A DNA stretch of 54,767 nt, counting the filler, from Bipalium vagum (Eukaryota): assembly GCA_037834085.1 (NCBI GenBank). It is 3 parts of 3 records of this genome, joined end to end, with 100 filler letters (N's around TTAATTAATTAA, not from the genome) between each part and the next. Parts side by side here need not be neighbours in the genome. Positions count along the whole stretch, not along the records: positions 1 to 18,200 come from JBBMKC010036884.1; 2 more parts are not named here. One strand, written 5' to 3'. Below, piece by piece: positions 1-45,160 of the stretch. Position numbers and translations under genes: made by a program. The notes beneath the pieces are model-generated. The model had not been told where the DNA came from, searched no databases, and saw only the letters and a program-made list of their open reading frames with translations. The stretch's first letter is position 1. Each line of letters opens with the position of its first letter.

Positions 1-17
1 AATCTAAAAATTTTGAG

Positions 18-720
18 GTGCGCCTTATGCTTAAGTATGCGTCTTATCTAAAGAATTTAGGAAAAATTAAATACATTCAAATAACACAATTATTTAATAA
101 TAAATCTATGTAATCATAAATAAAGATAAAGATTATATAATTAATACAATAATAATTGATAAAATCCATAAAATATCGATTATAATTAATTAATATTAAG
201 TATAGTATATATTTCATTAAGTATATATTTCACCAGTTCTGTCGTTTTTTACTAACACTTTAAAATTAAAAAAGCAAGGTATAGAAAAGATTTTTTTATT
301 AAACTAGTCTCCATTGCTTTCAATGTTGTTTCCATATTAAAAAGGTTTTCTATTCATAATTTTTAAAATCTTGGAATTTTACTGTTGAAAAAGAAATCGA
401 GACCATTTTTATCATCTTCATGGGATTAAATCCTTTGTGCATCTATTTTAAAAGATGATAATCAAAAGGTAAATCATGAACGTCGATTGTTAAATCGATA
501 ATATAATAGTTAATTGTTTGATATTATTTCTGATGAGATCATTGAATTTAATTGGATCCTCAAGAATAACAATGTGCTGATGTATTCAAAATTTAAAAAT
601 TTCCCGGTAACAAAATTTCAGAGTTCTTTTTTGGATAGATTATCGAACTGTAATACAAATCCAAAGTTTTATGCTATTAAGCTTATTATTTCCAGATATA
701 CTTGCTTAAGTAAAAAATGA
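18..720 (-). mobile_element. Heavily decayed pogo/Tigger-like DNA transposon remnant
   Basis: Repeated GCGYCTTAT motifs at 18-48 resemble pogo-family subterminal repeats. The minus strand gives only faint transposase C-terminal similarity (AMETSLIKKSFLY). Confidence 0.3.
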
Positions 721-1262
721 ACCGAAACCAAAGAGTTCATCAAAAATAATTCAAAAATCAAGATTATCTTAGCCGTTTTTAGTGATTGTATTGGCCTAGT
801 CAATTTTGAAGTTATTCCTGCTTGTCAAACAGTAAATAAGGAATATTTGAAAGCCATACGTCTTTTGAGAAAAGCACTTTGTAAAAAACGACGGATTCTT
901 GAGTAAACAATTCATGGATTTTACACCATGATAATCTAACATCTCTTACTGTCATCATTATTCGTGATTTTTTGGCCAAACATCAAACAAAATTTATTAC
1001 TCAAGCACCATACTCTTCTCATATGACCCCGTGTGACTTCTTCCTTTTCTCTCGGATAAGGTCACTTCATTGGCATGGTTTCGAGTCAGTAGAACAAATT
1101 AAAGAAAAATTCAGACTATTTCGGAAATGGAATATAAAACGGCTTCGACGATTGTAAAAAACAAATATGTTGCACTACCTGGGGACTACTTATCAATCAA
1201 TACCATAAATTTTGATAAGCAAATAAGTATTTTGTGTTTTGAAAATTTTTGAACACTATCAA
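721..1262 (+). mobile_element. Mariner transposase pseudogene, 3' half
   Basis: Translates to SKIKIILAVFSDCIGLVNFEVIPACQTVNKEY, NNSWILHHDN and QAPYSSHMTPCDFFLF (mariner HDN and YSPDLAPxD motifs), with frameshifts and stops. Confidence 0.9.
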
Positions 1263-1619
1263 TATAATATTTCTGAAGTGTAAAGTTCTTATATTTCCAC
1301 TTTAATAAAGTATAGTTATTATTTAGATAACTTTAACGTGTAATTAGTTTATTAAGTATATATAACTGGAAATTACTCAGTTTTTTTCGAGTGCCTAGGT
1401 TGTTTAGTTTCTATTGCGCAGAATACTAGAATTTGAGTAGAATACAAGCAGGATCCGAGCTGAAGTCCACAAAATTGAGTATTATTTAGGATAAAAATAT
1501 CGATTTGTATAAAATTCGTTTTTATTAAAAACTTATTATAATTGTGAATCATTGTATTATTCAATAATTCATTATTGAAATTTGATGAATTTTTTTTAAA
1601 CTAGCACCATTTTATTGTT

Positions 1620-3200
1620 TCAGTAAGAAAGTACAAGGATATAAGAAAATCTTTTTTTAATAATTTGTCGGTTTTTGTGTGATCAATAAAATTTATATTA
1701 TTACCGAAAGAAGTAAAATTTCTTGCACATATAATACACAAAGAAGGGATTCGAACAGATCCAACAAAAATTGAAGCTCAAAAATTTCGAAAGGCCAAAA
1801 TTTATTAATGGGATATGCAACTACTATAGAAGATTCATAAACAAATATTCAAAGAAATCGAGGGCCTTGGAGAAATTGTGTGGAGGCAATAACATAAAAT
1901 TGGTATGGTCTGAAAGTTGTGAGAGAGTATTTTGCGAGATGAAGGAGGCATTAACTAAAGCGCCTATCCTAGGATTCCCGGATATAAAAAAGACATTTAT
2001 TCTGGACACGGATGCCAGTTTCAATGCAATTGGACACAAACAGATAGTTATGGAAATGAAAGAGTTATTGCGTATGGATCTCACGCATTGTCAGCGCATG
2101 AAAAAGGTTACTGCATCACAAGGAAAGAATTACTGTCTATTTACTATTATTTACATTATTTATATGGAAAAAAATTCATGGCAAGAACAAATCATAAAGC
2201 TGTCGTATTTATGAAAAAGATAAACAAACCAATAAAGCCGTAGTTCCAGACGTTGATGAACTACTTAAGTAGTTTGGATATGGATTTGATATATAGACAG
2301 TGTGATAAGCACACCAATGCTGATATGCTTTCAAGAATTAGGTGCGAAATGTGCAGCCAATGTCAAATGCACCACAAAGATCCGAAGACAGAGAAAATAA
2401 AATAAAGGCAGATTAATCAAATTATGAAAATAGATAGGTAGATGTAAATAGCAGGATGGTGTAGCGGAAATCAAGACGATCAAAAAATATTCTAGAAAAA
2501 AAGGTTATGAAATTTCGAATGGAAAATGATGTAGTGAAAACAGGAGGAAAGATTTGGATCCCAAAAGAAAAACATGCATGATAAAAGAAATGCATGTTTT
2601 ATTAACACATGCTGAAGCAGAAAAAATTCGCCAGCTGCATTATCAATAACTATGGCCTGGAAGACCTGAATAATATCACGGCAGAGGTACTAAAACAATG
2701 TATGCCTTTCCAAAAGAATAAAGTAAACACCACAGCAACGAAAGAGGCTACAATTATCTTAAGTGCAAAATGTCCATTTGAAAAAAATTATATTGATATA
2801 TGTGAACCATTTCGAGAAACAATGGACAGGCGAAAATATATATGCGGAATAATAGATCAATATATTCGATATGTAAGTTTGACGGCATCAGTAAACAGGA
2901 TAAAGGAACTATAAAAAAGTGATAATGAAAACGCGAATATTGAGATTTGGAGAGCTAAAGGAATTTCATGTAAACAGAAAAAACGTTTGAATATAGAAGC
3001 TTCAAAAAATCTAATGGACTCAATGAATATAAACTACACGTCTCGAGTCATCACAATACGAATGGAATCATTGAAAGATAATGTCGTACGATCATAGATT
3101 GCATTAACGCTTCAGTAGATGATGATGGTTGGAAGAATTGGAGCTCGAAGTTACTAGATATTGAATATATGATAAATGCAACAAAACAAAAAATGCAACA
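1620..3200 (+). mobile_element. Ty3/Gypsy LTR retrotransposon pol fragment (RT end, RNase H, integrase), degenerate
   Basis: Motifs in order: EVKFLAHIIHKEGIRTDPTKIEA, LTKAPILGFPD, FILDTDASFNAIG, VIAYGSHALSAHEKGYCITRKELL, HTNADMLSR, then integrase remnants IDICEPF/GIIDQY and NTNGIIER. RT-RH-INT order indicates Gypsy. Confidence 0.9.
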
Positions 3201-3617
3201 AAACCAAGGTTTTTTACACAGTTACTTTTGCAACATGAGGTTCAGTATTATTATTATTATTATTCATCAATCCTGGGTATTTTTGACATGATACCGCATT
3301 GATAGGTTCTCCATATGCCAAGAAATAATAACAAAATAATAAAATAAAGTTTTATTTAAAAAGATATACATATCCTAAAATTATAAAAATTTTATCGAAA
3401 TTTATTTTATCTTTAAGGCTTTTATATATAGAAAAGCATAATATTTTTCCTTCAACTTTATATTTTAATATAATATTTTATTTAAAAATAGCAAACCAAT
3501 TACAATTATTTTTATAACTATTTTGCTGTCTGTTAAAAAAGGAACTGTGAAATTATTGATATCATTGAAAAGCTTCTTGGAATCAGGAATTTTTTTTCAA
3601 CATTCTTTTGAATTTAG

Positions 3618-3938
3618 CATTGTCACTGTTCGAATAACAGCTATTCGAAAGATTTATTCCCTATATGTACCGAGCTGCAATCAATTTTTATATTGGACAA
3701 TTCACCGGGTGCATACAGAGATTATCCAGGTTGAACATTTTACAAAATGAATGTTGAAATAATCTCTAATTATCCTTTTCCAGACAATGCTATTCCAATC
3801 AAATCCTGGTTCTCTGATCCAAAGGATACGGAGCTGTTAAACCTATTACCTATTTTGGATGCACTTAGATTTGTTAAGGATGTCCGAACAATGTTAAGTC
3901 GAAATCTCCATCGACATCCGAGTAATATACAATCGTGA
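3618..3938 (+). CDS. CTDNEP1: CTD nuclear envelope phosphatase 1 (Dullard), last two coding exons: 3618-3729 and 3784-3938
   Basis: Spliced across a 54-nt GT-AG intron, the exons read [88 protein letters not shown], matching the conserved CTDNEP1 C-terminus. Upstream exons were not found in the window. Confidence 0.93.
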
Positions 3939-4609
3939 TGATTTTCTTTTTTACCATAAATAAATATAAAGTTAAAGCAAGCTTATCAAAATTTTCTGAC
4001 TAAAAATCACAGTCCTTTCATCATTTTTTAATTGTAGAATTATTTAAAGTATAATCAATTATTAAAGTCTCGGAAAGAAAAAATGTATTTTGACTTGAAA
4101 TTTTTAAGTGTTAGTATTTTCGTTTTGTATTAAAACATGTGCATATATTGGTGGTTAATATTAATTTAATGAATTTTTGACAGTGATTAGAATTCATTCT
4201 AAGTTAGCTTATGACCACAGAAAATGCTGTTTTATTTCACAGAGAGGTTAAATTGTAGATAAAAACAGTTGGGTGAATTTAATGGAAGATTATTTTTGAT
4301 AAATGAATATAAGCTTTTATAAGTCTAATTTAATAAAAATTGACCCAAACCCAAACTCTAATATTTAATTTAAAAAATTAATAAAATATAATTTCAATGA
4401 AATAAAAATGGTGTATTAATTCCACAATCAAAAACTTCTTTTTTCTATTAATTTTATTTTTTTTTACAATTTTATATTTATAAATAAAAGGATTTTCAAT
4501 TTTGAAACTCAATTATTTTTATGTAATATGCATTTTATTATTATAAAAATGACGTAAGCCAAAAAGAATTTATTTTATGTTTCTAATAAAATTTTTCAAA
4601 CCATTTTAT

Positions 4610-4770
4610 TATAATGACTGAAAAGATTAAATTGATTTTAATAATTCAGACAAGATTTATTTATAAATCAATTTTAAAGTTTCATTTCATTTTATTTTCA
4701 TAACAGAGCTGGATATGATTTTCATTTACTTTTTAAGGAATTAATAACAAAATATTCATGTGATTTAAAA
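4610..4770 (+). pseudogene. Protein-primed DNA polymerase B fragment (Exo II region)
   Basis: 4690-4743 reads FYFHNRAGYDFHLLFKEL, the pPolB ExoII motif FHNxxGYDxH. It is preceded by frameshifted IMTE..D*IDFNNSDK. Confidence 0.7.
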
Positions 4771-4830
4771 TATATTTATATTTTATTAATTGTACGAATG
4801 ATTGACAGCAATTAATGTCTTAATTGTCTT

Positions 4831-5234
4831 GTTTTTACCATTGAGTTTTACCATTGATTCCTATTCTTGGAGCTATCTTTGCAGGCTTAGGAGCACCTGG
4901 TGGAGTTGCTGGAGGAGTAGCAACAGCAGTTCAAAAATCAAAAAAGGCTCAAAAAAGTAATACAGAGAAAGAAAAGATTGAATTTGAAAAAAAGAAGCTA
5001 GAAATGGAAGTGGAAAAACTTAAACCTAAAGAGGAACAGAAATATGAAGCAGGTTTATATTATGACCAATATTTTAGAAAAGGATTAAAAGATACAATTT
5101 AAAATTATTCTGAATATAAAAGTTTACAGAAATCTGAAAGGAAAGATTTAAAGGAATTATTACAAAAACTTTGTAAAAATTAAAATTATTAAACAAGGAA
5201 ATTGTTTATATTTTGACTCTTACGAGAAAAGTAA
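4831..5234 (+). pseudogene. Polinton pX/core-like protein with amphipathic Gly/Ala helix and coiled coil
   Basis: Reads (F)LPLIPILGAIFAGLGAPGGVAGGVATAVQKSKK, similar to Polinton GGFLPLIP...GGAAGIA proteins and adenovirus pX. Downstream are AGLYYDQY and a frameshifted GNCLYFDSY. Confidence 0.65.
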
Positions 5235-5542
5235 ATTTAGAGCCGAAGGCTCGTTTTTCTAACTAAAAATTTCCCAATAATATTTTTTTCGGAAACTCAA
5301 AATGTAATTTTAAAAATGATGTTCTTATTTTTTGTGGTTTTTATCATGATAGATTTTTGGATTATGACTGGAGAGATGTAGCTGAAGAATTTAATTTATC
5401 TTATAAAGAGCTAATGAAACAATTAAATTTGAACAAAATAATGATGTTTACTGAATATTTAGATGATGATGAATTATTTATTGAACATGATTAGAAAACT
5501 TAAACGAAAAAATCCAAATATTTAAAATTTTATTTTTAAAAA

Positions 5543-6012
5543 ATGTCTCGATTTAAGATTGTAAAAACAAACACATTACTAGAATTTCTCTGTAAATATG
5601 GAATTAACTCAACTACATATTTTGATTTAATAGATATTGCTGAGAATTTAGAAATACCATTAAGTTTTAATGAAAGATTAAGTAACAGAAAAAAATCAGA
5701 AATTCCATTAATTATTAATTATCAAAATAAAAATCAATACAAATACAAAAAATCAAAATAAATACAATTCATTGGGTTCATTTTTTCTTTTTTTCGGCGA
5801 AGCCTCGTAAAAAAATAGGATACTTTTTTGATTCTTATGGTTAACCACCACTTGAATATTTAGAAAACATGTTAAAGAATATAAAAAATTTGATTTTCAG
5901 TCTATAAAAAAGATTTAGAGTACTGTGGACAATTATCTTTATATATTTTATATCAACTTTTTCAGGGAAAATAATTTGAGGAAATTTTAGAAGATTTGAA
6001 ATGTTATTTTTG
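5543..6012 (+). pseudogene. Adenain-like (Polinton PRO) cysteine protease
   Basis: IINYQN...IHWVHF (His at 5770)...GYFFDSYG*PPLEYL...DFQS...EYCGQLSLY gives the His-Asp-Gln-Cys motif order of adenoviral-type proteases. One stop and frameshifts. Confidence 0.85.
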
Positions 6013-6050
6013 AGAAGTTGAAACTAAAAATTAAAAATTAAATTAAAAAA

Positions 6051-7075
6051 ATGCAAGATGTTTCAGGCAATAAAGTTTTGTTAATATTGCTGAAAATATT
6101 GAATATATTTATACTAAAACTAAACCTCCAATTTATTATGATGATAATGATAATGAAGAAATAAATGAAGAAATTAAAAGTATTCAAAATGACTCAGAAA
6201 ATAAAATTTTAAATGTTACTGGAGATTCAATGAAAGGAATTTTAAATATGAATAATAATAAAATAATAAATATTCCAAATCCTACTGAAGATAATGATGT
6301 AGTAAATAAAAAGTATACAGATGATAAATTAAATATAATAAGAAGTGAAAAAATAATTAATGTAAATGATAAAACAATTAATATTAAAAAAATTTGAAAA
6401 TGACTTAAATGAATTAAATATAAAAATTGAAAATATAGAAAAAGAATTCCTTGATAAAAAACTGAAATCGAAAAAATATATTTCAAAACTGAAAATCTTT
6501 TTTGCAGATGATTATAAAAAATTAAATGAAACATTTAAACCAAATATTTGGCATTCATTTTGGAAATCATTAATATCAAAAAGTATAAATGCTTTTGGTC
6601 TAAATATCACTGCAAATAATGATGGATATTTATTTGGAAATATTTCTAATTCTTTAATTGAACCTTTTACAATAATATTAGTGGCAGAAAAAATTAATTA
6701 TAAAAAAGATAATATTATAAATTTTAGAACAGAAAATAAATATCATGTTTTGGTTGGTATAATAATAATAGGAATTATTTTTTGTTAATGGAAAATCAAT
6801 AGGACGAACAGAAGTAACAGAATCTAAATTTGGAACCGATTTAATATTTTTAAAATGTACTAAATCATTGACTTTTCTAACACATTCACATGTTTTCTAT
6901 AATTCAGAAAACAAATATTCAACAATTTTTCCATCAAGTAGTATGAATTTCAATTTAATTCAAAAAAAATAAAAATTTATGAAATCCTAATTTTTAAAAG
7001 AAGTTTATTTAAAGGTGAAATGGAAGAGATTGAAATTTTTATGAAAAAGTTTTATCCAAAGATACACTACACTGT
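6051..7075 (+). pseudogene. Polinton fibre/tail-fibre-like protein
   Basis: Starts MQDVSGNK and contains GDSMKGILNMNNNKIINIPNPTEDNDVVNKKYTD, a repeat type seen in phage tail fibres and Polinton accessory proteins. Frameshifted. Confidence 0.55.
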
Positions 7076-7160
7076 AGCGTTTTGAGACTTCGTCTCAATT
7101 CTTTACAATGTAAAATATTAAAAAAAATCTACATTTTGTTTTCAAAATTTATATTAAAAA

Positions 7161-7765
7161 ATGGAAATTGAAGCAACTGCTCCTTTTAAAAAACTTTATC
7201 CAAATTTAAAAAATAAATTTATTTATGAAGATTCTAATCCTTTAAAAAAATTAAAAATTTTATAAATGAAAAAAAGGTTTTAGAAGACTTATTAACACAT
7301 TATAAAAAATTAAAATATACAAAAATAGATTCTCATTTAAAATTAGGAACAAATGTTATAAGAGGAATTGTTGGAGTTGAATCTGCAATAGTGACATGAG
7401 TTTCTACTTTAGGTATTGGATTAGTTATTTATATTCCAATTGGTGCTTCAATTTTTACTGCATTAAATTAATTTATTACTGAATCAATTAGTAAAAATAG
7501 TAAAAGTAAAAGAAAAAAACTTTATAGAGAAATTTGTGAATCAATAGAAAATTCAATTAGTAAGCTTTATATTTTTCAAATGAAAGCATTAGAAGATAAA
7601 ATATTAAATAATGAAGAAATTGAACAAGCAAAAATAATTAATAAATGTAAAGAAAAAATTAAAAAAATAAAAAATGGAAATATTATTGAAAATGTTAAAA
7701 ATAAAACAAAGAAAGAATTGAAAAATGAATTGAAAAAAAAATCTAAAAAAGTTAAAAGTTTATAA
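7161..7765 (+). pseudogene. Polinton coiled-coil/transmembrane accessory protein
   Basis: MEIEATAPFKKLYPNL at the N-terminus, a hydrophobic VSTLGIGLVIYIPIGASIFTALNYL segment, then a Lys-rich coiled coil (MKALEDKILNNEEI). Confidence 0.5.
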
Positions 7766-7989
7766 AAAAATTTATTTTATTTTTAAAAAATGAGTGCTTT
7801 ATATAATGGTAAAACTTTTGAATTAAATAAAGTTTTATATTTATTAGAAATTTTTCCTATTTTAAAAATATTGAAATTCAATCTCTTCAAGATATTTATG
7901 ATTTTTTGAAAATTGCATATTATGAATTTCCTTGAAAATAATTATTTAAATTTTTTATTTTAAAATCACACTTGTGGTGCTACTATTTT

Positions 7990-8250
7990 TTTTCAAAAAA
8001 TCGAAATTGGTGCAAATCAAAATTCAATCGATTTTAAAAAAAGAATTGATATATCAACAAAATTACAAGAAGTAAAAAATAAATTTGAAACTAATCAATT
8101 AAAGCAATGGAAAGAAGAAAGAAGACTTCAACAAGATTTAACAATTTTCATAAACCTGTTACTGATGCGGTTAATAAATCTAAACAATAAACAAAATTTT
8201 ACAAAACGAAAATGAAAAAGTTAATAAAAATCTTCTATTTTAACTGAAGA
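7990..8250 (+). pseudogene. Fragment of a conserved Polinton coiled-coil protein (KP[VI]T motif)
   Basis: KKRIDISTKLQEVKNKFETNQLKQWKEERRLQQDL..FHKPVTDAV resembles the FKPIT-containing N-terminus of a common Polinton ORF. Confidence 0.4.
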
Positions 8251-8299
8251 AATTAATGAACAAAACAAATCGAAACTAAAATTAAAGATGAACAGCAAA

Positions 8300-9108
8300 A
8301 AATTTAAATAAAAATGGAAATTTAACTTTTAGTTTATTACAAAAAGCAGATGCTTTAGATTTATCAGAAGCAATTTTAGTTTTTGAAATTGAAATAACAA
8401 ATATAAAAGCAGATGAAAACATTACATTACAAAATAACTTTTTTCCTTATTTATTTTCTAATGAAATTTTAAAATTAGGATCAACAGAAGTAGAAACAAT
8501 TGATTATTTAGGAACTTCAATTTCAATAACAAATTTTGTATTAATTGATAAAAATAAGGATGGAGAAATTTTTGGATGGATTCCTGATAAAATAAAGAAG
8601 GTCCAAATAAAGATAATAAAAGATTTAAAGCAAAAAAAATATCAATTTCAAATAAAAAATTTATTGGTGAATAAAATAAATAAATAATTTATTAAAAAAT
8701 TATAAAAAATTTACTTCATTTAAAATTAATGTTTGGATTTTTATAATTTTTTAATAGTTATATATAATATGCAAGGAGAATTAACTTTTACAAGAAAAAT
8801 AGATATTGATAAAGAAATATTTTATGGAACAAACCAAGATGGAAAAATAAAATTACTTGATTTAAAATTAATTTTTCCAGAATTACTATAAATTCTGAGT
8901 GAATTACAATTAATTTCTAGAATTGATGATGGAAAAAATATAAATGTAAATTTTTGATCAAGACATTGTGAAGAAAGAAATTTAACAGAAGGAACAACTC
9001 AAACTTTACAATTATGTAATATTCCAAATCAACCAATTTAAATTTTTATTGGATTTAGAGAATCCGAATTTGAATATACAAAAAATAATTTCCTTAATAT
9101 AAAATAGA
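8300..9108 (+). pseudogene. Polinton double jelly-roll major capsid protein (MCP), truncated
   Basis: NLNKNGNLTFSLLQKADALDLSEAILVFEIEIT...ITLQNNFFPYLFSNEILKLGSTEVETIDYLG...GWIPD...LKLMFGF...ELTFTR...KIKLLDLKL...PI*IFIGF follows the Polinton MCP motif order. Confidence 0.75.
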
Positions 9109-9120
9109 TTCATTATTATT

Positions 9121-9943
9121 ATTATAAACTATAATTCTTATATTTAAAAAATTTTCAAATTGTTTTAAATCATCAATATTATTTCCAGTTTCTTCAATTT
9201 ATACTTGAGCTATATTGTGTAATTTTATTACCCATTCTTCTTGAATTGGATCACCTCTTCTAATATACCTCATTTTATTATCACGTTCGGAAAAGTTAAA
9301 ATAGCTTTTATTTGTAAAATTATCATAAGTTAAAGAAGTTATTATTGATCTTGCTAAACAGATTGTATCATTATTTTGAATTATGTTAATAGAATTCTGT
9401 GCAAAATTTTGAATTATTAAATTTTTAGAATTTTTTCCACTATAAGATACATCGTTTCTTCCTTTTCATTGATGTTTTGGTATAGTTAAAAAATTCAAGT
9501 TACATCTTCAATATTTAATGTTTGTTCTGATTGTAAAATTTTTTCTAATCTTGTAAATAATCGATTTACTATTCCTTTTTTAAGTAAAGGAAAACAACTA
9601 TATCCTGAATAAATTAAAAGATGTAAAGGTGTCAGTTTAACATTATAATAATTATTATTTTTTGTAATGGTTTCTAAAATACGATTTAAATAATTAGTAA
9701 AAGTTCTTTCTGTAATATCTTTCAGAGAAATTTTAAAGTGATAAACTATACTTAAATGTTTTTTATAATAATGGGAATTTAAATAAGTTATTTTATTACC
9801 TTCAAAACTTATAAATTTTAGATTATAATCATTATGAAATAAATCGTCAGGAAAAGAACATTCTTCAAAAGGTAAAACATTTTTATAGCTTGTCATTCAT
9901 CGAGATTGATGATTGAATTTGCTTGTGTGTTTCGAGTAGACAT
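9121..9943 (-). pseudogene. pPolB N-terminal (terminal protein/vOTU-like) region, truncated
   Basis: ORF 9495-9896 (...RLFTRLEKILQSEQTLNIED) is followed by NSINIIQNNDTICLARSIITSL...RRGDPIQEEWVIKLHNIAQV*IEETGNNIDDLKQFENFLNIRIIVY, typical of a Polinton pPolB N-terminus (IxNxDxxCLARA). Confidence 0.75.
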
Positions 9944-10057
9944 TTTTTAAGAAAAAAATTAATTTTTTCAGTTTTAAATTTTTGATTTTTTAAAATTTTT
10001 TTATACTCAACTAAAAATATTTATTTGTCCCCAGTACAATTTTTTAGACTTTTTCTT

Positions 10058-10240
10058 TTATCTTCCTTTTCTACATTCTATACATTTATTTCTCCTAACT
10101 TCAAAATCTGATAAAGGTAGACATTGATTACAATAATTAAAATTTTTATAAGTATTGTTCTCATATTTTTGTTTTGTATTTTGATAATTATTAAAATTAA
10201 TATTATAACGACATCGTTTACAATATTTTCTTCCTTCCAA
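10058..10240 (-). CDS. Small Cys-rich (3x CxxC) hypothetical protein, probably Polinton-derived
   Basis: YCKRC...YCNQC...KCIEC, upstream of and co-oriented with the pPolB fragment. Confidence 0.35.
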   Translation of the reverse strand: MEGRKYCKRCRYNINFNNYQNTKQKYENNTYKNFNYCNQCLPLSDFEVRRNKCIECRKGR

Positions 10241-10329
10241 GTCTTATTGTTATCAATGGTTATTGTTAGCAACGAGATATAAATCACAGGTTATTGTGAT
10301 ACTCCAAGGTTATTGTTTGTACTTAAAAT

Positions 10330-10615
10330 TCTTTTGATTAATCTTTCAGATCTTGCTGATAACTTTTGGGTCTTCCAATGTGAGCTAAATCCTTTTATGA
10401 TTTATCATTCTCAGAGCCAATAATCTGTGGAGACTGCCCATGATCAACCCATCCTCAACCAACATGTCTAAGTCTGTGTTCAATTCAAACAAATGACAAT
10501 CCTTGATATTTGACTTTATCTTAATAACTCTTGTGTGATTATTGTGTTATGATGCCAATTATAAATTTATATTAATATTCCTATTGGTTATGATGTCAAA
10601 TCATCTTTGATAAAA
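10330..10615 (-). mobile_element. Penelope-like reverse transcriptase fragment
   Basis: Minus strand gives FDI... and VEDGLIMGSLHRLLA (QxxGxxMGSxxS RT motif), degenerate. Confidence 0.5.
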
Positions 10616-11289
10616 AATTAAATAATGAAATATAAATTTATAAATTAATTATAAAACAATTATAAATTATTAAATGTATATATTATATTATTACAAGTAG
10701 TTATACATATTATATTATATTATAAATATGTTATTTATTCTGAAATATTAGTATATTTTTTATAAAAAATGGGATAATGCTTAATAATTAAGATATTATA
10801 GAATTTTAAAAATAGAAAAATAATTAGAAATATTATAGATATAGAATAGAGATCGATAAAATAGAAAAATAATTATATAATGTATAAAAATAGTAAAAAT
10901 AACAATATTTTTTTTAAAAATGTATAAAAGGTTATAAATTAAAGTTAAAAATAGGGAAGACATACTAAAAAATAATCATTACAAAAACGTGAAAAGTGAA
11001 TAGAACCAGCAGATTTTTACGAAAAAAATGAAAATGGAAAATTAGCAAACGAAAAATTAGAAACTTCAATCATACAAAATAACCTCCAATCATCTTGTTC
11101 CGGCAGACCGAACAAGAAATTGTTATGAACAAGAAAGAAAACAATCCTTATTAAAAAAAAGAAAGGGACGTTTAATTTCATAATAAAATAATAAAAAATA
11201 TAAATAATAAATATAATATAATAATATAAATATAAAATAAAATTATATATATATAATATTATAATATTATATTATATATATTTAATTAT

Positions 11290-11830
11290 ACACTTTTAAA
11301 AAAACATTTTCAAACACGCAAAATTTTATTTATACTACTATCTTGAAACATGTTTCGATCTCTTCTTTCAGATCTTCTTCAGTCAATTTTATTCTTCTTC
11401 AATGTCTATCTTCAAATGATATCACTATCGTGATTTTAAAATATTATCTACATTATTATTGGATAAAAGTAAAAGAACTTTTAATTCTAAAAACTTGAAA
11501 AATTCCATTTTTTAATATTAAATTAAATTTTAGAATTATTAATTAAAGAAAACATTAATCATCCATTGATTTTGTGAATTAATTTCTGGTTTCAGTTTTT
11601 TACTTAATAATGATTCGCATATTTTTAGTTTCTTCATTGTTATCAAAGTTGGTTATTACTACAGTAACTTATTTTCATTGGTATAATTATTTCCTTCTCT
11701 TTCATTGCAACTAACAATATGATCCAACAATTTTCTTGTTCTAGGTTTTTGAGAATGCTCACTAATTCGTGTCTTTAGGTGAAGTTGTGTCTATGTTGTC
11801 CTATGTTGTCCCCTATGTATAGATGACTAC
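11290..11830 (-). mobile_element. Penelope-like element 3' end (GIY-YIG endonuclease and pLTR)
   Basis: YIG...HLKTRISEH...LLDHIVSC...NFDN...ICESLL...KPEIN, followed by a 3' UTR containing a hammerhead. Related copies at 40540-40945 and 45400-45850. Confidence 0.8.
11343..11386 (-). ncRNA. Minimal type I hammerhead ribozyme
   Basis: Minus strand reads TTGA-CTGAAGA-A-GATCT-gaaagaag-AGATC-GAAA-CATG-TT-TCAA: full core, 5-bp stem II, palindromic CATG stem III and 4-bp stem I. Confidence 0.85.
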
Positions 11831-12199
11831 TTATATATAATTAAATTAAAGTGTTTTGAAAACAAAATAAAGTTGACTTAATTAATAAATAAAATTATTG
11901 ATTTAACTTTATTATCATAGGAACAAACTTTTTTAAAGTCAAAACAAAGCTTAGCATAACTAATTAACTAATTAAAGGCACAAGTTAGAACTTGAAGATC
12001 AAATAATTTTTTTAATTTCTACTTCTTAATACTTTATATTTTTGTTCATTGTTTCGCACGCTAAGTAAAGGGGTGAGACAATTTTTTTCTTCATTGATGA
12101 CCTCTGAGTCTAAGAGCTAGAGGATTTCTCAACCTAAATAAAAATACAATTTAAAAAAGAATTTTTACCAAGGACGATAGTTACTAATTTGTAACAATC

Positions 12200-12780
12200 T
12201 TTTTTTATAACAATTGACTAAATTTTTATTTATTTAAACTAGTTTTTTCCAGCTTTTTTAATTGAACACGTAAGTAAAAGCCACCTTCATACGTTAAGTC
12301 CAATTCCATTAGCTCCACAATTTTTAGAAACTTAAAAAATCCAAGAAACACAAAGATTATAAGTCTAGGTGGATACCATTCATTGGGTCCATTCTTCTAA
12401 GTATACTATTAGGTCTTGGTATTTCTCCTGGTTAATTCTCCAAGTATTGTCATTTAAAATATTAAACTTTATTTGCATTAATTCAAAGCACTAAAGTTTT
12501 ATTTTCTATAGTATGACTCTTCTGATCAAAGATGACAGTGTGAAAATGTTAACCACTCTATTCTTCAGATGTAAACTTAAACTAAATAAACTCTATATAT
12601 TGATCTTCTGAGTAGGTTGAAGAATTTGGCTCTGAATATAATACATAATCTCTAGGTTATGCTTTATTATCTGATCTAAATAATTCTTTTTTTCTGATCT
12701 TGTGGTACACCGAGATACATATAATGGTTGTCTTTGTCGATCAGGGATACAGACTCCTCTTTAATTTGATCATCAATTTT
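12200..12780 (-). mobile_element. RLE-type (R4/Dong-like) non-LTR retrotransposon fragment
   Basis: Contains EESVSLIDKDNHYMYLGVPQ (RT YxYLG) and DNTWRINQEKYQDLIVYLEEW (restriction-like endonuclease KYxDL), with internal deletions. Confidence 0.5.
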
Positions 12781-13620
12781 ATTATATGATGAGAAAATAA
12801 TATTCACATTTTATAATAAAATATATATATAGATATAAACCTTCCCCAAGAGTAATGTAATTTAAGTCACAATCTCCTCTAAAACCACCTAATATATAAC
12901 TCTGATATGTAACCATTGTCTTTAATATTTATATTTAATACTAAAATCAACGCGTACCCCTTTTGAAACCTAGAGATTACACATGGAGTACTTTTTGTTA
13001 TAAAAAATAGATCAATACTTAAAATACAATTGTGTTTGATGATTTTATTCTGTTTTATTTTCCTTACTTGAAATATCACTTAAACCTAAAACTCTATTTT
13101 TGATCCCTAAATAGTAAGTTCTTATAAATTGTTATTTTTGAATCTTCTTTTCCGAATATTGTAACACATCGAAATTTGGGAAGTTGCTGAATATTTTAAT
13201 ATTTTTTAGTTATTTACTGAAAAGAAATTTTAATGTTATCATTTGAAATAATTTTAAGCAGACGTATTTTACAAAGCTCAGCTTAAGATAAACTAAAAAA
13301 ATCTTTAAATCATTTCATCTAATTATTTTAAATCAAGGGTCAATAAAAATTTATTTATGAGACTTTTGACCTTATTAAATATCAAAATTGGAGTCTGAAT
13401 TGAATTGAACAAAACAAAATTCAAAGTTCTGAGTTGGATATTATCATATATCCTATTTTAATACCTGACATTTCATATAAAATTAATTTCTTGTAATTTT
13501 TTTTTCAAAAATTTTTATAATGGGTACTTTTTAAATGTAGACTAAAATAGAAAGCCGTAAAAAAATTTAAGTACGTTTGCTACATTCTGATCTCATTGTT
13601 TAGCACTGAAATTCAATACG

Positions 13621-13640
13621 ACCAATGAAAACATGGCGTC
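13621..13640 (+). promoter_or_regulatory. Candidate promoter elements: CCAAT box and YY1-like AACATGGCG
   Basis: ACCAATGAAAACATGGCGTC lies about 480 nt upstream of the stathmin-like ATG. Motif match only. Confidence 0.3.
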
Positions 13641-14118
13641 CAATTAACTCAGTTCACGAGGTTAATTTCCACACAGACCCCAAAGATAACCTGCTATAAT
13701 GTATAACCTGTTTTAATTTCTTAATTTACATATAGATTCGTGAAAAAAATGTAAATATGTCAAAAAGACATTTTTTTAAGGAAGTCAATAGAGGATCACC
13801 CCATTTTTCGAACAATTTTGACATGTATTAATAATTAAACGTAAACTTAAAATACTTATACATAAAAGAATTTATTATTTACACGACATCTAAAATGGTA
13901 ATAATTATTTATTGTTTATTTATATTATCATTTTAAGATTTTTGTGCATCTTTATTAATTTATATATTTAAGTATGTTAGTACATATTTATAATACAAAT
14001 TTAAGCGGTATCTTATAACTAATTATTGTTTATTTGTAGTATCATAATAAGATTTATTTTTCTTAATAAAAAGAAATCATTAGGAATCTATATCTTTACA
14101 TATCTCTTCAATTTAGAA

Positions 14119-16598
14119 ATGAGCGAATTGAATACGTCATGTCCGTCATTGTCATATGTTATAGATCTATCTTCAATGGAGATTTCTCCTTTATATAAAG
14201 GAACAAGTGATTCAAATATAAAATCTAGTAGCTGTAATAGTTCATTCATGGACAATAATTTTTGTGATTCCGTATCAGGCCAAGGAGATACATCGATATC
14301 GAAAAAAACCCAGGAATTATTTAAAAAAGTTAATAGAAATCCACTAAGCAAAGATGATATTGAAAGAAAGCTTAAAGAAGCTAATGACAGAAGACGATCC
14401 ATATTGAATGTTACTTTTTTATTATTATAAGGAAATTATTAATTTTGATCATATCGAAATTTTAGGACAAAAAACGTAAAAGCGAAATGGAAATAAATAA
14501 AATTTCAATGGGAATCGAAACCAGGTCGAAACAAATCAACGAGATAATAAATAAGATGAAAATTGAAATAGAGGAAGATATTGCAACGAAATTGGAAAAA
14601 CGTAAACAGTTTTTATGCATGGAACAAATGAAAGCAAAGAGAGAAGTTTGGAAATTCTATTTGTTTATATCCAGAATTTGAAGACATTTTTAAATAAAAT
14701 TATAATTTAACCTTTCAAAAATTATTTGTATAATCTTACAAAAATATGGTAAATGGGTTTTAGTTTATAACTAATTCAATATATTATTGTCACATTATGC
14801 ATTTTTCATCACCGGTTATCAACCATTTAAGCAATGGTTCCATTTCATGACGTTTCAATAAATTTTCACAAACGGAAATTCGGTCATTAAAGTTTTTTTC
14901 CGATAAATTATGAGGCACCCAGATATCCGGGCTAAAAGGTGAATGCGGAAGAATTTCGATCCCGTCGAATTCTGAACTTGTTAGCGTCTTCTTTACTCTG
15001 TGAGGTTTAGCATTATCATAGTGGAACAAAACCCTTTTTCGATGAACCAGTATGATATGTTTTGCTTAAGCTTTTCCAAGACTCGGCTTAGCTGTTTACA
15101 ATATAGATTGGAGATAATAGTACTGCCATCGATAATAAGTTCAAAATGATGCGCACCCTTTGAAAATCTATCAAACACAGATCATTACTTTCTTACCGAA
15201 CCGATTTTGTCTTGGGACTGAAGAAGGAGTTTTACTTCTCGGAACCCATTGCCTTTGGTGGCTTGGATTTATCAAGTATATCCATTTTTTATCAAACGTG
15301 ATAATGAATTCCCAGAATCGAACTTCCATGGGATTCTGCAGTAAGTGGCGGCAAATTTAAACGAGTCGTTTGACTTGTAATTCGGTCAGCTCATATGGGT
15401 CTTGACAAGCATAATCGAGGTTATGCATGTGCCACAAAACTATTTGGTGATTCACATTAAACATTGCTCTCAAATCACGACTGTTAGATGACACAATTAA
15501 GATGGCTAAGCAAGTCCTTATTATCTAACTGTGATGGTCGACCACAACGAGGTTTTACTTCCAAGCTAAGGTCACCAGTTTGAAACTTTTGTACCAACGA
15601 GATACAGCTGTATCGTGGGCTGTTCTTTCACTTTCGAAATCGCATATTTGCAGTTTCCCTGGTAAAAAATCCGCGCTTCTAACAAAGAATTCACAATTCA
15701 TTTTTATTCAAAGTCATCTAAAATTATTTATTTATTAATATAATTTTATTAAATGGTTTACTTATATCTTAAGAAATTTTAAAAATCAGGTTAATGAAGA
15801 TAATGAATTAAGAATATTTAAACAAGTAGTGCTCAAATATTATTACTGATTAGATTTAATATTACTAATATTCTAATATTTTGTAAGTGCTGCAGATTTT
15901 TTGTCTCAACCTATTAATTTATAGACTGAAACCTAAATTCAAATTTATTCTGTAAATTTTGTGGTCGTACATTGTCCTTTTATATTCTTCGTCAGTAACG
16001 TAAGTCTACTTAACTAGTTTTTTGCAATTTCTTTCATCCATACCATTCAGATAATTTTCCTATTGTAAAACGTCGTAAACGAAACAGCAATTGTAATCGT
16101 AAATTTATATATTGCCTACTATATTATATATATATTATTTATTTCTTTGCTTATTTAGAAACTTTAAAAATATTATATTTGTAATTAAATTTTTAATTCT
16201 TGTATGTTATATATTCTTGTTATGAAAAATTGAAGATTTTTTCTTATATCTATTATAATAAATTATATATATAGCTAAATTTTTTATATTTTATTTTATA
16301 TAATAATAATTATGTAATATAATATAATAATAATAATAAAATAAAATTTTAAGATTGAAAAGGTTGAAGGCGCTAAAAAAGCTATCCAGGAAAGATCATT
16401 TGAGGAGCAAATAAAGAGATTTAATAATGATATGGAAAAAAAAGAGAATCTAAGATTTCGCAGGATCTCTAATATTGTGGATAACTGTAAATCACATGTA
16501 AATAGATAATTGTTGTTAAATTCTATAAACTATTCTTTGAAATTTAGATTGATCATGTTAAAAGCATCCGTGAGAAACGAAAATCACAAAACTGCTGA
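14119..16598 (+). CDS. Stathmin-domain protein; exons 14119-14409, 14466-14645, 16354-16497, 16548-16598
   Basis: All introns are GT-AG phase 0 and give one open frame. SYVIDL plus LSKDDIERKLKEANDRRRS matches the stathmin SLEEIQKKLEAAEERRKS repeat. It continues as a long coiled coil and ends RKSQNC*. Confidence 0.8.
14790..15915 (-). mobile_element. Mariner remnants (two fused pieces) in the stathmin intron
   Basis: TIR-like TAATAGGTTGAGACAAAAAATCTGCAG at about 15889-15915. Motifs FHYDNAKPH and HSPFSPDI, then a second piece WVPHNL...LITGDEKCI. Confidence 0.88.
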
Positions 16599-16914
16599 AG
16601 ACTTTGTTTCTTGTTGTTGTTTCTTATTAGATATCTTGAGTGTTTAGATTTAGATAGATTTAAATGTTTGTCCTATGATAAGTTTGATTTATTCTTGAAA
16701 TTATCATTTTAAATTTGAAAATTTTATATATATTATCTATGTCACATATTTCTGCAAAATATCATATTTATGTTTACAAGGTATATTTGTCAATTAATCA
16801 TACAATAAAGATACTTAGAAATGTGCTTTAAATTTTATGAATATATATAAATTTAGTCTAAAAATTGATTCATATTTTTAATAGGTATAATTAGATAAAT
16901 TTTTTATATAAAAA

Positions 16915-17600
16915 ATCCTCGAAGGTTCATGAGGAAATGGTCGGCGAGCTTCATATTTCGAGAAAACCTGTTCGTTGTGTGGTTAAAAGAGATGGGAATA
17001 TCTTTTGAAATTTAGAAATGTTCATTCTCTTACGAATACCGACGTAAGAATGACTTGACAGAAGTCACTCGTTGATAAGGCAGTTTGAAGCTCATGGGGT
17101 TGACACAGTTTTTTACTCTGACGAAGAGATTTTCAGAATTGAATAGTCTTTTAGCCGTCAAAATGACATAGTTCTTACTCGTAATGTATCAAAGATGCCA
17201 GAAGATATCAAAAACATCCGCCGAATTCAAAGCTCAGGAGTGTCAGCAACAGAAAAACGTCCATTGGATTTTGTACCCATTAATGCTCAAAATCATAAAG
17301 AATACATTCTGGAGCCAGCTGTGAAGAACAAGATATGTTACAAGGAGGTCAACTTTCGTTCCAATAAGATGGAGCATCAGGTCACACTTTCAGATGAACA
17401 CAAGAGTGGCTCCGGAACAATTTTTCTAGCTTTCTGAAAAAATAAGAATGGCCTCCTTCCAGCCCAGTATTGGAGAAAAATTCGTGCAGAAATTCTCATT
17501 CAACTGTGTAAAAGTTAAAATGAACATTGAAACGAAAATGGACTAAACTACCAATGGGTGTGGAGCGTACAGCGGTTGAAAGTAGTATGGAATACCAGTC
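16915..17600 (+). mobile_element. Tc1/mariner superfamily (DD37D/maT-like) transposase pseudogene
   Basis: Motifs FYSDEEIFRIE, RQND, GVSATEKRPLDFV, INAQNHKEYILE, FQ*DGASGH, TQEWLRNNF and EWPPSSP. Confidence 0.8.
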
Positions 17601-18200
17601 TTTGAGGACAGAACTCAGAAAACGTACTTTTTGCTTATTTTTTTGCTCGATATCGCTCACTAAAAGTTAAAATGCATATTTTACTCGCAGACACTTGCAA
17701 AAAATAATTATAAAAAAGTGTTCTTTCCTTTAAGACTGGTTTTTCCTAGTACATAAAAATTATTATTTTTATATTTTTTACATGTTTTTATAAGTGTGCA
17801 GTAGTAGTATATACATAAGTGTAAGGTACGGTAAGAAATATTAGTACGATACCATACTTTACCATAAGTAGTAGTATTTTGTATTTTCATATTTTTATAA
17901 TATGTGGTATATGTATACAACATAAAAATATTTATTCTATTTTTCATATTTTTATATTTTTCAAAAAAATAAAAATAAAAATATTAAAATAATTAAAGTC
18001 AAATTATTTTCTAAAAAATGGAAAATCAAACAAAAATATCAAAATTCCCAATAGACTTAAATAATCTTACTGTAGAACTGTTAAGGTTGACCTACTAAGA
18101 TGGTTTAACAAGAACTGAATTACGATTTTAGGTCACTTAACAAGATTACGACTCTCAGAAGGAATTACGGATGAACGTAGGGAACACTACTGACACAATA

Positions 18201-18300
18201 NNNNNNNNNNNNNNNNNNNNNNNNNNNNNNNNNNNNNNNNNNNNTTAATTAATTAANNNNNNNNNNNNNNNNNNNNNNNNNNNNNNNNNNNNNNNNNNNN
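18201..18300. other. Artificial scaffold linker N44-TTAATTAATTAA-N44
   Basis: Exactly 100 nt with a six-frame stop 12-mer at 18245-18256; identical to the linker at 35791-35890. Confidence 0.95.
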
Positions 18301-18569
18301 ATCGATTTCATTTACTTTTTATTTTTATATTTACATAATATTTATTAATACGCACGAACTTATGGACTGACCTAATAGTTTGGTATGGGGTGTAGATATC
18401 AGAAAATTAATTAGAAATTTTGTGCAATGCCAAATCTGAATATCATCATTTTTCTTTTCAAATTATCATTTGATTATTAAAATTATTTAAACAAATCAAA
18501 ATTTATTTAATGTTTTAGAGTTAATAAAAAGTAAGACTTCGCAAAGTTCTAATATAAATAAAATAATCA

Positions 18570-33972
<15,403 letters not shown>

Positions 33973-39022: not shown

Positions 39023-40280
39023 CACAAGAGGCAGTCTAAAAGTTTCGGGCATGGAGAATATGGAAAGGTTTAGTATAAAATAAAAAAAAGTTAATCAAAA
39101 CATATGTTATTTTAGTACTATATTACTTTTGGTTTTTGTATAAGTGCTAATTTACATTTAAATATAGTATAGGAAGTGGAAAATATGAATTTATCAATGG
39201 AAAACTTTCGAGCAATGATTTTATATGATTTCCGATACGGATTGACAAAGCAGCAATGTCTCGATCGCCTAAGTTTAGCATTTCCTAATGAAGCTCCATC
39301 AAAAACCACGTATCGATGGTTTTATGAATTTAATTCTGGACGCGTCTTTGTGGGTGTTGATTTCAGAAAAGGTGGTCCAAAAACAAGTTTATCCGATGAG
39401 AATATTGAAGTTTTTCGTGAATTAATTGAAGAAGATCGTCGGATAACATATGAAGAAATTCAGACATTATTAAACATATCTCCGACTTCAATTCATTCTA
39501 TTTTACATGAATTCTTTGGTGTCAAAAGCTATCTTCTCGTTGAATACTGCATATCCTTACAATTGATCAAAAATGATATCGTGTTAATTGGTCCAAAGCT
39601 AAGGCTGATAAATTTAATTAATTTATTTTTTTTTGTTTTTAACCTCAAACATGTTTATGACATCGTCAGTGACAATGAATCATGGATATACTCATAGCAA
39701 TCCAAAACAAAGCAGCAGTCAACTGTTTTGGTGTTTTAGGGAGACAAATTATCAATTAAAGTTATTCTATCTTGGAACACCTCCAAGCAAATAGTTGTCT
39801 GTCTCATAGCCAAATGAGGTCATATCGCTACCATTCCTTTAGATGATCGTCGCACAGTTACTTCGAATTGATATATCACAGTTTGGTTGCCTGAAGTCCT
39901 CAAAGAATGGAGAAAAAAATTCAAAACGCTTCATTATGCTTCATCATAATAATGCCACTTCCCATACAGTCCATAAAACAATCGATTTTTTGAGGACTCA
40001 AAACGTTGAATTGTTAAGTCACCATCTCATAGTTCTGATTTGGCACAAAATGACTTCTTTACACCTGGTTCCATAAAAAAATTGCATGGGCAAACAACAT
40101 ATTTTGCACATACCGACTTTGGATTGGAATAAATGTTCCAATGACTGGTTTAACAGAATGCAAAAGTGTATAGGTTGTGACGGAGAATACTTCGAAACAC
40201 AATGTTAATTCGATGTTAATTATTATAATAAATATATGCTGTTGTGTGTCATTCTAGAAACTTTTCGACTGACCTACGTA
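39023..40280 (+). mobile_element. Near full-length mariner element, transposase pseudogene
   Basis: ORF 39176-39697 has FRAMILYDF, LAFPNEAPSKTTYRWFYEF and IVSDNESWIY; downstream are LHHNNATSH and RMQKCIGCDGEYFE. Degenerate TIRs: CAGTCTAAAAGTTTC and GAAACTTTTCGACTG. Confidence 0.92.
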
Positions 40281-44019: not shown

Positions 44020-45160
44020 ACCAACAACATAGTCATCATCATTTTACAACAACTGTCTCCCATCTTAAAACAAGCTTTTCAATGCCTTTTTTTAAAAAAA
44101 CTTTCTGATTTCGACTTTTAACATCAGCAAGGGAACGATATTTTTCCCTGTCCAAAAATTTTGGAGTGAATGAAATAAGTAGTAATCATATGATGCGTAA
44201 TCAGAGGAGTTAGGAGGATGCGGTAGAACTTCCCACTGAAGTTGTCGTATCTTTTCCTGGGTCTTCTTTGCTGCATGAGGTTTAGTGTTATCGTTTTGAA
44301 GGAAAACATTTATTCTATTAACACGTCTGGATGTTTTTTTGCAATCTGTATCAGTTAAATGCCTCAACTGATCACAGTAAACATTTGCGGTACTCTTTTA
44401 GCCAGGTTTGAAAAACAATCCCGTAGATGTTTCACCAAATTTGTAGTAAAACTTTTTATGCATGAATATTTGGTTTTACGACTGATACTGGTCGTTCTTT
44501 AGCAGATAACCATCGACGTTTACGCTTTTGATTATCATGGAGGATCCATTTTTATCTCCGGTTATGATTCAGTGCAAAAACGACTTCTTTTGTTGTCTAC
44601 TTAACAATGAATTACAGATCGTTATGCACTGTATCTTGATCGAATCTGACAAAATATGTGGAACCCAAACTCCTTCTCTCAAGGCTTTTTCCATTTCTTT
44701 TAAGTGATTATATACTGTTGATTTCGGTACTCCAATGGCTTTTGCAATGTTCTCAAGACTTTGTTGTGGATCTGATCCCACTATCGATTTTTATGCGTCA
44801 TAATCTATGGTAAATGGCCTACAAGATTTTGGGTCATCTTTGAAATCTATGTTTCTATTTTTAAATTTTGAAAACCATCGCTGAATTTTGCACACGCTCA
44901 GGACATTTGAATAGACTGCATTAATATTTCCAGTAGTCACTGTTGCACTATTTTTCTTCATCAATTAAAGTAACATTCAATTTCGGAGATGGTCTTCTGT
45001 TGGTTTATCGTCAGACATTTTTTTCAGTAAACGATCAAGAAAAATGATTTCCGATATCAATCAACTATAACATGTCATTTAATTTAAATTAAAAATCTTT
45101 TCAAATACTCAAAGGGAAATTATATAAGAAAAAGACATTACTTTTCGTAATACCTAATAT
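44020..45160 (-). mobile_element. Near full-length mariner element, transposase pseudogene
   Basis: TIR TATTAGGTATTACGAAAAGTAATG near 45135-45160. Motifs IQRWFSKFK, GVWVPHILS, IITGDK.WILHDN, FLQNDNTKPH and LPHPPNSSDYASYDYYLF. Confidence 0.92.

Follow-up and report, generated by a model that had tools for sequence, protein, structure and literature searches.

Active Polintons (Mavericks) copy themselves by means of a protein-primed polymerase, are integrated by an integrase, and may also build capsids. The Alpha adintoviruses of Starrett et al. (2021, PMC8502044) are described with a double jelly-roll capsid, an adenain, and a protein-X-like gene, and their hallmarks include a PF03175 polymerase and a PLA2 domain together with an rve integrase. 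Among planarians, capsid- and protease-encoding Polintons/Mavericks of high copy number are on record, e.g., Polinton-1_SM and Polinton-2_SM of Schmidtea mediterranea, which both possess capsid, penton, ATPase, and protease according to PMC4028283 (Table S1). A Maverick expansion has been reported in Dugesia genomes, and Orthopolintovirales insertions in flatworms (Rhabditophora) are described in bioRxiv 2025.04.19.649669; our literature search found no dedicated study of planarian Polinton capsids. According to PMC8097293, 96% of 3,511 vertebrate Maverick loci are decayed relics. The locus presented here occupies positions 4600 to 10250 of a stretch of Bipalium vagum DNA (GenBank assembly GCA_037834085.1; 54,767 nucleotides including filler, hereafter the window, along which all positions are counted). 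It is, with high confidence, a dead, internally deleted Polinton (Maverick, adintovirus-type), one of many diverged copies in an animal chromosome and likely inserted by its own integrase. As a relic, the element falls into a known class, its family probably being without a name, and it is ordinary except for one unexplained gene that may be a free-standing polymerase piece.

The double jelly-roll capsid, the adenain, and the protein-X-like gene are common to the window and the Alpha adintoviruses, from which the window differs by the absence of PLA2, integrase, ATPase, and penton and by an OTU-like gene that is unmatched to the Alpha polymerase of one relative, metagenome locus L003. Capsid and protease genes and a high copy number are also common to the window family and the planarian elements; the Schmidtea Polintons are 15-16 kb long compared with the 5.6-kb relic, a likeness drawn from published descriptions. 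With respect to decay, stops, frameshifts, and lost terminal repeats are found here as in vertebrate Mavericks (PMC8097293) and the human chromosome 7 relic (PMC8502044), whereas host group and capsid lineage are different and the present insertion has no orthologue for dating.

The assignment to the Polintons/Mavericks (Polintoviricetes) is carried by two of the four core virion genes (Table 1), i.e., those of the double jelly-roll major capsid protein, which is present though broken and shortened, and of the adenain-type cysteine protease. Read in frame 3 with X at the seven stops, the capsid region matches PF21738 (E 5.7e-7; 29.5 bits, cut-off 27), which is the sole above-cut-off Pfam match among 21 element segments scanned. 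A protein search with this piece yielded 2 relatives among 912 candidates, namely, P0002 and the unbroken 413-residue P0003 (39% identity over 264), and P0003 as a query retrieved 19 proteins among 6,064 candidates, all with PF21738. The frameshift-aware alignment to P0003 scored 409 (shuffled DNA at most 51 in 8 shuffles) and covers residues 33-289 of 413 with 114 of 252 positions identical, 7 stops, and 2 frameshifts, the last ~120 residues being unmatched. The structural model of P0003 (pLDDT 87.5, pTM 0.88) is a double jelly-roll that matches the capsids of PBCV-1, mavirus, and an iridovirus (E about 1e-14) as well as those of MELD, adinto-, and giant viruses. The likeness to Adenoviridae and virophages is one of fold only, with 6-15% identity among the matches listed and neither a hexon nor a virophage-type capsid sequence found. 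The Atlas score of the capsid piece (0.96) is under the recognition level and serves as a lead only, and tblastn of the piece in phages gave no match.

The catalytic residues of the protease are distributed across three frames, with His at 5770, Asp in FDSYG at 5827-5841, Gln at 5898, and Cys at 5924. Frameshift-aware alignments scored 143 and 116, and shuffles reached at most 38 (20 each). The window's own protease pieces have no Pfam match, and the profile built for the protease found adenain among PDB sequences at E 0.62 only. The relatives of the protease are linked to a Peptidase_C5 protein (hhalign 94%, E 1.4e-7) whose own Pfam match has an E value of 2e-11, and for the relative from metagenome locus L003 (model pLDDT 91.9), adenovirus proteinases are the top five PDB matches (E 3e-4 to 7e-3). 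A further gene, resembling the adenovirus core protein X, is recognized by phmmer (37.4 bits; decoy 6.9) and by frameshift-aware scores of 152 and 128 (shuffles at most 41); its relatives match Pfam Adeno_PX below the cut-off (E 5e-4 to 0.03). A 13-base tandem duplication at 4833-4857 lies where the protein-X-like match begins, near the likely joint with the upstream polymerase piece.

Gene context was provided by 34 metagenome loci obtained with a capsid alignment from 259 pattern matches. All 166 open reading frames (ORFs; at least 60 residues) of the Polinton relatives described below were aligned to both strands of 4400-10400; the reversed region scored at most 61. Clear matches were obtained for the protein-X-like gene (up to 196), protease (116-143), transmembrane gene (120), capsid (up to 346), and the polymerase piece with the ExoII motif (72). 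Loci L002, L003, L018, and L021 are ordinary Polintons: L002 carries an rve integrase (E 5.8e-13) with a PLA2 domain, an A32 ATPase (Pox_A32), and a protein-X-like gene; L003 carries a protease and a 1,403-residue PF03175 polymerase (DNA_pol_B_2, E 1.2e-10); and L018 and L021 carry an ATPase, a protease, and a gene of 257-261 residues that we call a putative penton on account of a by-eye likeness to the pentons aligned in the PMC4028283 supplement. The Alpha hallmarks of PMC8502044, i.e., the PF03175 polymerase (L003) and PLA2 with the rve integrase (L002), occur in the nearest relatives with gene context. The protease-fibre-transmembrane order of L021 is that of the window. In L018, the protein-X-like gene is separated from the protease by the ATPase, another conserved gene, and the penton; at this place, the window has only ~300 unassigned bases. 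Scans of viral_contigs yielded no relative of the capsid, the protease, the minus-strand ORF, or P0023, its homologue introduced below, and the genome_contigs scan yielded no relative. In L002 (5191-6513), PLA2 is fused in front of the rve integrase and the protein-X-like gene stands alone, while a fusion of PLA2 to protein X is described in PMC8502044. In L029 (7730-10825), two divergent capsid-like genes in tandem are followed by a Peptidase_C5 protease.

Every gene aligned over at least 100 codons carries stops or frameshifts, and the alignments are collinear, so that no introns are needed. The longest stop-free stretches comprise 131-140 codons, and none within 4600-10250 exceeds 140. Such stretches could suggest a viral gene that was recruited by the host and survives here, e.g., the fibre or capsid piece, but each of them belongs to a longer gene with stops or frameshifts, and recruitment is hardly credible. 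In the window, the rve integrase (best phmmer 1.4 bits; alignment 56), the packaging ATPase (3 phmmer queries; alignment at most 57), and the penton (4 phmmer queries; alignment at most 60) were not found, the decoy maximum being 61 in each case; the PLA2 domain is absent, and neither phmmer nor frameshift-aware alignment of the relatives' ORFs revealed a polymerase body or palm domain. The polymerase-related content amounts to the 31-codon ExoII piece and the OTU-like gene. The active ancestor would have replicated by its protein-primed polymerase, packaged its DNA by the ATPase into a protease-matured capsid, and integrated by its integrase. Deletions, with presumed joints near 4780-4845 and 9090-9104, probably removed the ends of this copy along with the integrase, the ATPase, the penton, and the greater part of the polymerase, and subsequent neutral decay would have left it capable of neither particles nor new insertions.

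The setting in a chromosome and the size of the family were assessed with contigs of run X1 (0.43 of sampled words) placed on 3000-11000 at 80% likeness. They number 11,286, with 1,235 at 99% likeness or more, 2,902 at 95-99, 3,920 at 90-95, and 3,229 under 90, i.e., 89% are less than 99% alike to the stretch, and these thousands of distinct variants indicate a large diverged family. The summed depth is 3,484-27,007 over 4869-10208 compared with 31-56 over 3534-4334. Contigs with zero differences cover 3162-4888 and 10186-11000 and bridge the element on both flanks to DNA of low depth. Together with the diverged contigs, this bridging identifies the stretch as the integrated remnant of a family with many copies. 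An erroneous joining of a free virus or contaminant to host DNA would be compatible with the fact that none of the X1 contigs listed spans the whole stretch, yet the two crossing contigs have depths of 18.4 and 15.3, the left one reaches into a host exon, and genes broken throughout would not be tolerated by a replicating virus, which makes a mis-join very unlikely. An apparent X1 joint from 7221 to 4712 was rejected and read as a diverged copy of 4650-4750 placed on an AT-rich look-alike.

Table 1. Features annotated in the element and in the surrounding window
Feature	Position	Strand	Basis
NIF-family phosphatase, last exon; host gene, left flank outside the element	3777-3938	+	Pfam PF03031 E 3.8e-9, above cut-off
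Protein-primed polymerase piece, 93 bases, ExoII motif, Alpha (PF03175) type	4684-4776	+	L003 polymerase match
Core protein gene like adenovirus protein X, without start; 1 stop, 1 frameshift	4845-5226	+	phmmer, alignment
Open stretch, 75 codons, no family	5267-5491	+	Multi-copy in run X1
Maturation protease gene of adenain type; 2 stops, at least 2 frameshifts	5543-6013	+	Alignment, catalytic motifs, relatives' profile and model
Fibre-like protein gene, broken; matched part 6170-6394 only	6051-6969	+	PHROG, gene order
Transmembrane and coiled-coil protein gene, 2 stops	7244-7765	+	phmmer, alignment (7244-7630)
Broken stretch with KPVT motif (8152), candidate gene	7790-8290	+	Start context like other genes (repeat D5)
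Major capsid protein gene (double jelly-roll), final ~120 codons lost; aligned part with 7 stops and 2 frameshifts	8292-9104	+	Pfam, alignment, relative's model
Broken gene like terminal-protein and viral OTU region of polymerase	9090-9943	-	Homologue P0023
Broken ORF, three CxxC motifs	9977-10243	-	Motifs at 10222, 10132, 10084
Stathmin-like stretch, listed with host genes	14023-14430		Pfam E 0.009, below cut-off
BEACH-domain exon, host gene	19983-20501		Pfam E 1.7e-28

A preliminary description of this DNA had proposed a Polinton/adintovirus-like gene cluster, and the capsid, protease, protein-X-like, fibre-like, and transmembrane genes and the ExoII piece are indeed real and located where it had placed them. 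Its class assignment is borne out by the capsid, the protease, and the gene sets of the relatives, its double jelly-roll capsid by the PF21738 match and the P0003 model, and its adenain by the adenovirus proteinase-like fold of the relatives' model and the H-D-Q-C motifs in the window. Of its suggestion that intact copies may exist elsewhere in the genome, the presence of further copies is supported by the thousands of diverged X1 contigs. The gene named pX-like is genuine in the adenoviral sense, but in Polintons the name PX denotes the penton (PMC4028283), a different gene that this copy lacks. The KPVT and CxxC motifs are present in the sequence, and neither the genes named after them nor the unknown ORF has a family or clear relative. 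The claim that most of the virion-morphogenesis module is preserved went too far, since neither a penton nor a packaging ATPase was detected and the capsid gene is itself partial. The suggestion of a probably undescribed lineage, taken as a mark of importance, is not supported in view of capsid relatives at 78% and ~40% identity in public assemblies, of the capsid-encoding Schmidtea Polintons (PMC4028283) and the Dugesia expansion already on record, and of the similar decay of 96% of vertebrate Maverick loci (PMC8097293).

Several observations weigh against the interpretation as a single integrase-inserted Polinton or limit its evidence. Terminal inverted repeats were not found around the element, the best flank-flank inverted match being 70-80% over 41-77 AT-rich bases, and neither a matching pair of end motifs nor a target duplication was detected, so that an insertion made by the integrase is not established for this copy. 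None of the characters of an intact Maverick (terminal inverted repeats, end motifs, a 6-base target duplication, and unbroken core genes) is found here. Run X1 may be the source of the window itself, and its depth does not equal copy number. The capsid tree (33 rows), in which the window copy groups with P0002 (99) and then with P0003 and P0004 (100) inside an 18-row group (100) containing L002 and L003, is a quick version without bootstrap and without named Polinton sequences; it omits P0007-P0009 (near-identical to P0006), P0014 (the L003 capsid), and the fragmentary capsids of 19 loci. In the tree alignment, the identity of the window capsid is 78% to P0002, 42% to P0003, and 39% to P0004. 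Finally, the two polymerase-like pieces are oppositely oriented and match the same reference, L003, unequally, which means that the stretch may join two elements.

The plus-strand ExoII piece is identical in 14 of 31 positions to residues 701-731 of the L003 polymerase, and its score of 72 was reached by none of 50 shuffles (at most 41). The minus-strand gene ends at the junction with the capsid gene, before the His strand. Its ORF at 9498-9896 found four proteins among 1.84 billion representatives, one of which, P0023 (E 2.2e-13), is a real homologue; the other three are repeat or LRR proteins and were discarded. The alignment of P0023 continues beyond the frameshift as far as about 9090 (score 596; at most 59 in shuffles), and this position, where both the minus-strand and the capsid gene end, is presumably a deletion joint between two convergent genes. 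P0023 starts with Met and comprises 333 residues in which a Cys motif is followed later by a His motif, along with CxxC pairs, without an exonuclease or palm domain. Because the same Cys/His/CxxC layout is described for the OTU domain of Polinton polymerases (PMC11161782), the gene is putatively named terminal-protein/OTU-like after these motifs. The minus-strand gene and P0023 have no profile match (including NCBIfam and PHROG), P0023 has none among PDB sequences, a word-indexed search of longer proteins retained 0 of 108 candidates for the OTU-like piece, and tblastn in plasmids found none. The motifs of P0023 presumably resemble those of Beta-type polymerases. Its comparison with the L003 polymerase gave no real match (E 0.67), and the minus-strand gene matches the L003 OTU region weakly (50, shuffles at most 47). 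Of the N terminus of pPolB that had been annotated here previously, a real broken gene from 9943 to about 9090 with a Cys motif like that of a viral OTU domain is confirmed, while no profile ties it to a polymerase. Measured against the Alpha adintovirus type (OTU-PF03175 polymerase, Mayetiola-class capsid module), the ExoII piece and the capsid group with the Alpha-type L003, and the OTU-like gene does not; the capsid module is likely of the Alpha type.

The opposed pieces would be explained by a junction of two elements, an exchange of the replicase, or a gene that stands alone. An exchange of modules between the Alpha and Beta types is described in PMC8502044. As a refinement of the reading as a dead Polinton, it is conceivable, though we hold it only tentatively, that two tandem or nested Polintons were joined by deletion, one contributing the ExoII piece and the capsid module and the other the minus-strand terminal-protein/OTU gene and the CxxC ORF. 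The opposite orientation of the pieces, the good match of the L003 polymerase to the first and its weak match to the second, the truncation of both genes at the 9090-9104 joint, and two X1 contigs that extend ~200 letters unaligned past 9112 and 9123 all fit a composite, and tandem integration and double replicases are on record (bioRxiv 10.64898/2026.10.13.758929). However, the X1 depth is similar in both halves, and a common A-run start context (5543, 6051, 7161, and 7790 on the plus strand; 9943 on the minus strand) is shared across them, both as expected of one family. A free-standing terminal-protein and OTU-protease gene, existing in the family apart from an Alpha-type polymerase gene and hence not the front of a polymerase, is unlikely: P0023, the sole real homologue, does end without the exonuclease and palm, and the Alpha-type ExoII piece lies separately on the other strand, but P0023 is a single sequence from one contig of 2,107 bases and may be truncated, either at the end of that contig or by a stop if it stems from another dead copy, and its domain names derive from motifs only.

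Somewhat more doubtful still is the extended proposal that, in a family of flatworm Polintons, the terminal-protein and OTU-protease region forms a gene of its own, apart from an Alpha-type polymerase on the other strand, be it as a second route to a split terminal protein or as a snapshot of replicase replacement. To our knowledge, a split terminal protein is so far known from adenoviruses, and a literature search found no dedicated study of a stand-alone OTU gene. Should the OTU-like gene turn out to be free-standing, it would bear on how terminal proteins became separate genes. For the relic as a dead Polinton copy, its use is that of a marker, as the reads document an extensive, diverged family of Polintons in the host, and its capsid lineage has only three close relatives among the proteins found. 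In planarians, Polintons are described as piRNA targets and as becoming active in the course of cell differentiation (PMC8532177). Should the host prove to be a planarian, a survey of its family would fall within a group with Polintons of this kind.

With respect to the remaining genes of the element, the fibre-like gene matches PHROG tail-fibre families (best E 6.4e-6 and 7.2e-6), along with head-decoration families, and is identical in 22 of 73 positions to the gene downstream of the L021 protease. Its alignment score of 77 was set aside because unrelated ORFs reach 70-75 at 6137-6496, which was treated as low-complexity noise, and the call therefore depends on the PHROGs and gene order. Atlas and PHROG provided no lead for 6366-6785, nor did Pfam for 6366-6969, a part with many short hydrophobic runs that gives the impression of a possible beta-sandwich head. 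The transmembrane gene matches the L021 gene that follows the fibre-like one (phmmer 32.8 bits, decoy 2.0; frameshift-aware score 120 over 7244-7630, shuffles at most 41). The KPVT stretch matches a small L018 ORF weakly (45, shuffles at most 39) and the corresponding L003 ORF not at all, 6 of 50 shuffles having reached the score; the CxxC ORF compares with that of L002 at chance level (7 of 50 shuffles). The open stretch at 5267-5491 has no Pfam, NCBIfam, or PHROG match under E 0.05, and none of the 166 relative ORFs scores 55 or more on it. Five gene starts (5527-5545, 6035-6053, 7145-7163, and 7774-7792 on the plus strand; 9943-9960 on the minus strand) show a T-rich stretch and then an A-run directly before the ATG, possibly a promoter or start context of the family.

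The window is AT-rich (GC 0.175-0.346 per kb), Rfam gave no match over 1-20000, and Pfam shows pieces of host genes and animal transposons around the element. A decayed gypsy-type retrotransposon occupies 1735-2914, its RT-RNase H part (1735-2240) being supported by Pfam. Positions 3000-3266 are present in run X1 in very many copies. Run X2, which bears the label of another organism (share 0.06, 310 contigs), contains faint copies of the element and a contig identical to the host exon (3678-3918, depth 2.6), a trace of this animal's DNA that was not used for claims on host or habitat. A mariner-like relic at 39173-39697 is of the Mos1 type and matches the Mos1 HTH profile of Pfam, and further mariner-like transposase relics, judged by eye, lie at 903-1157, 14790-15065, and 44092-44397.

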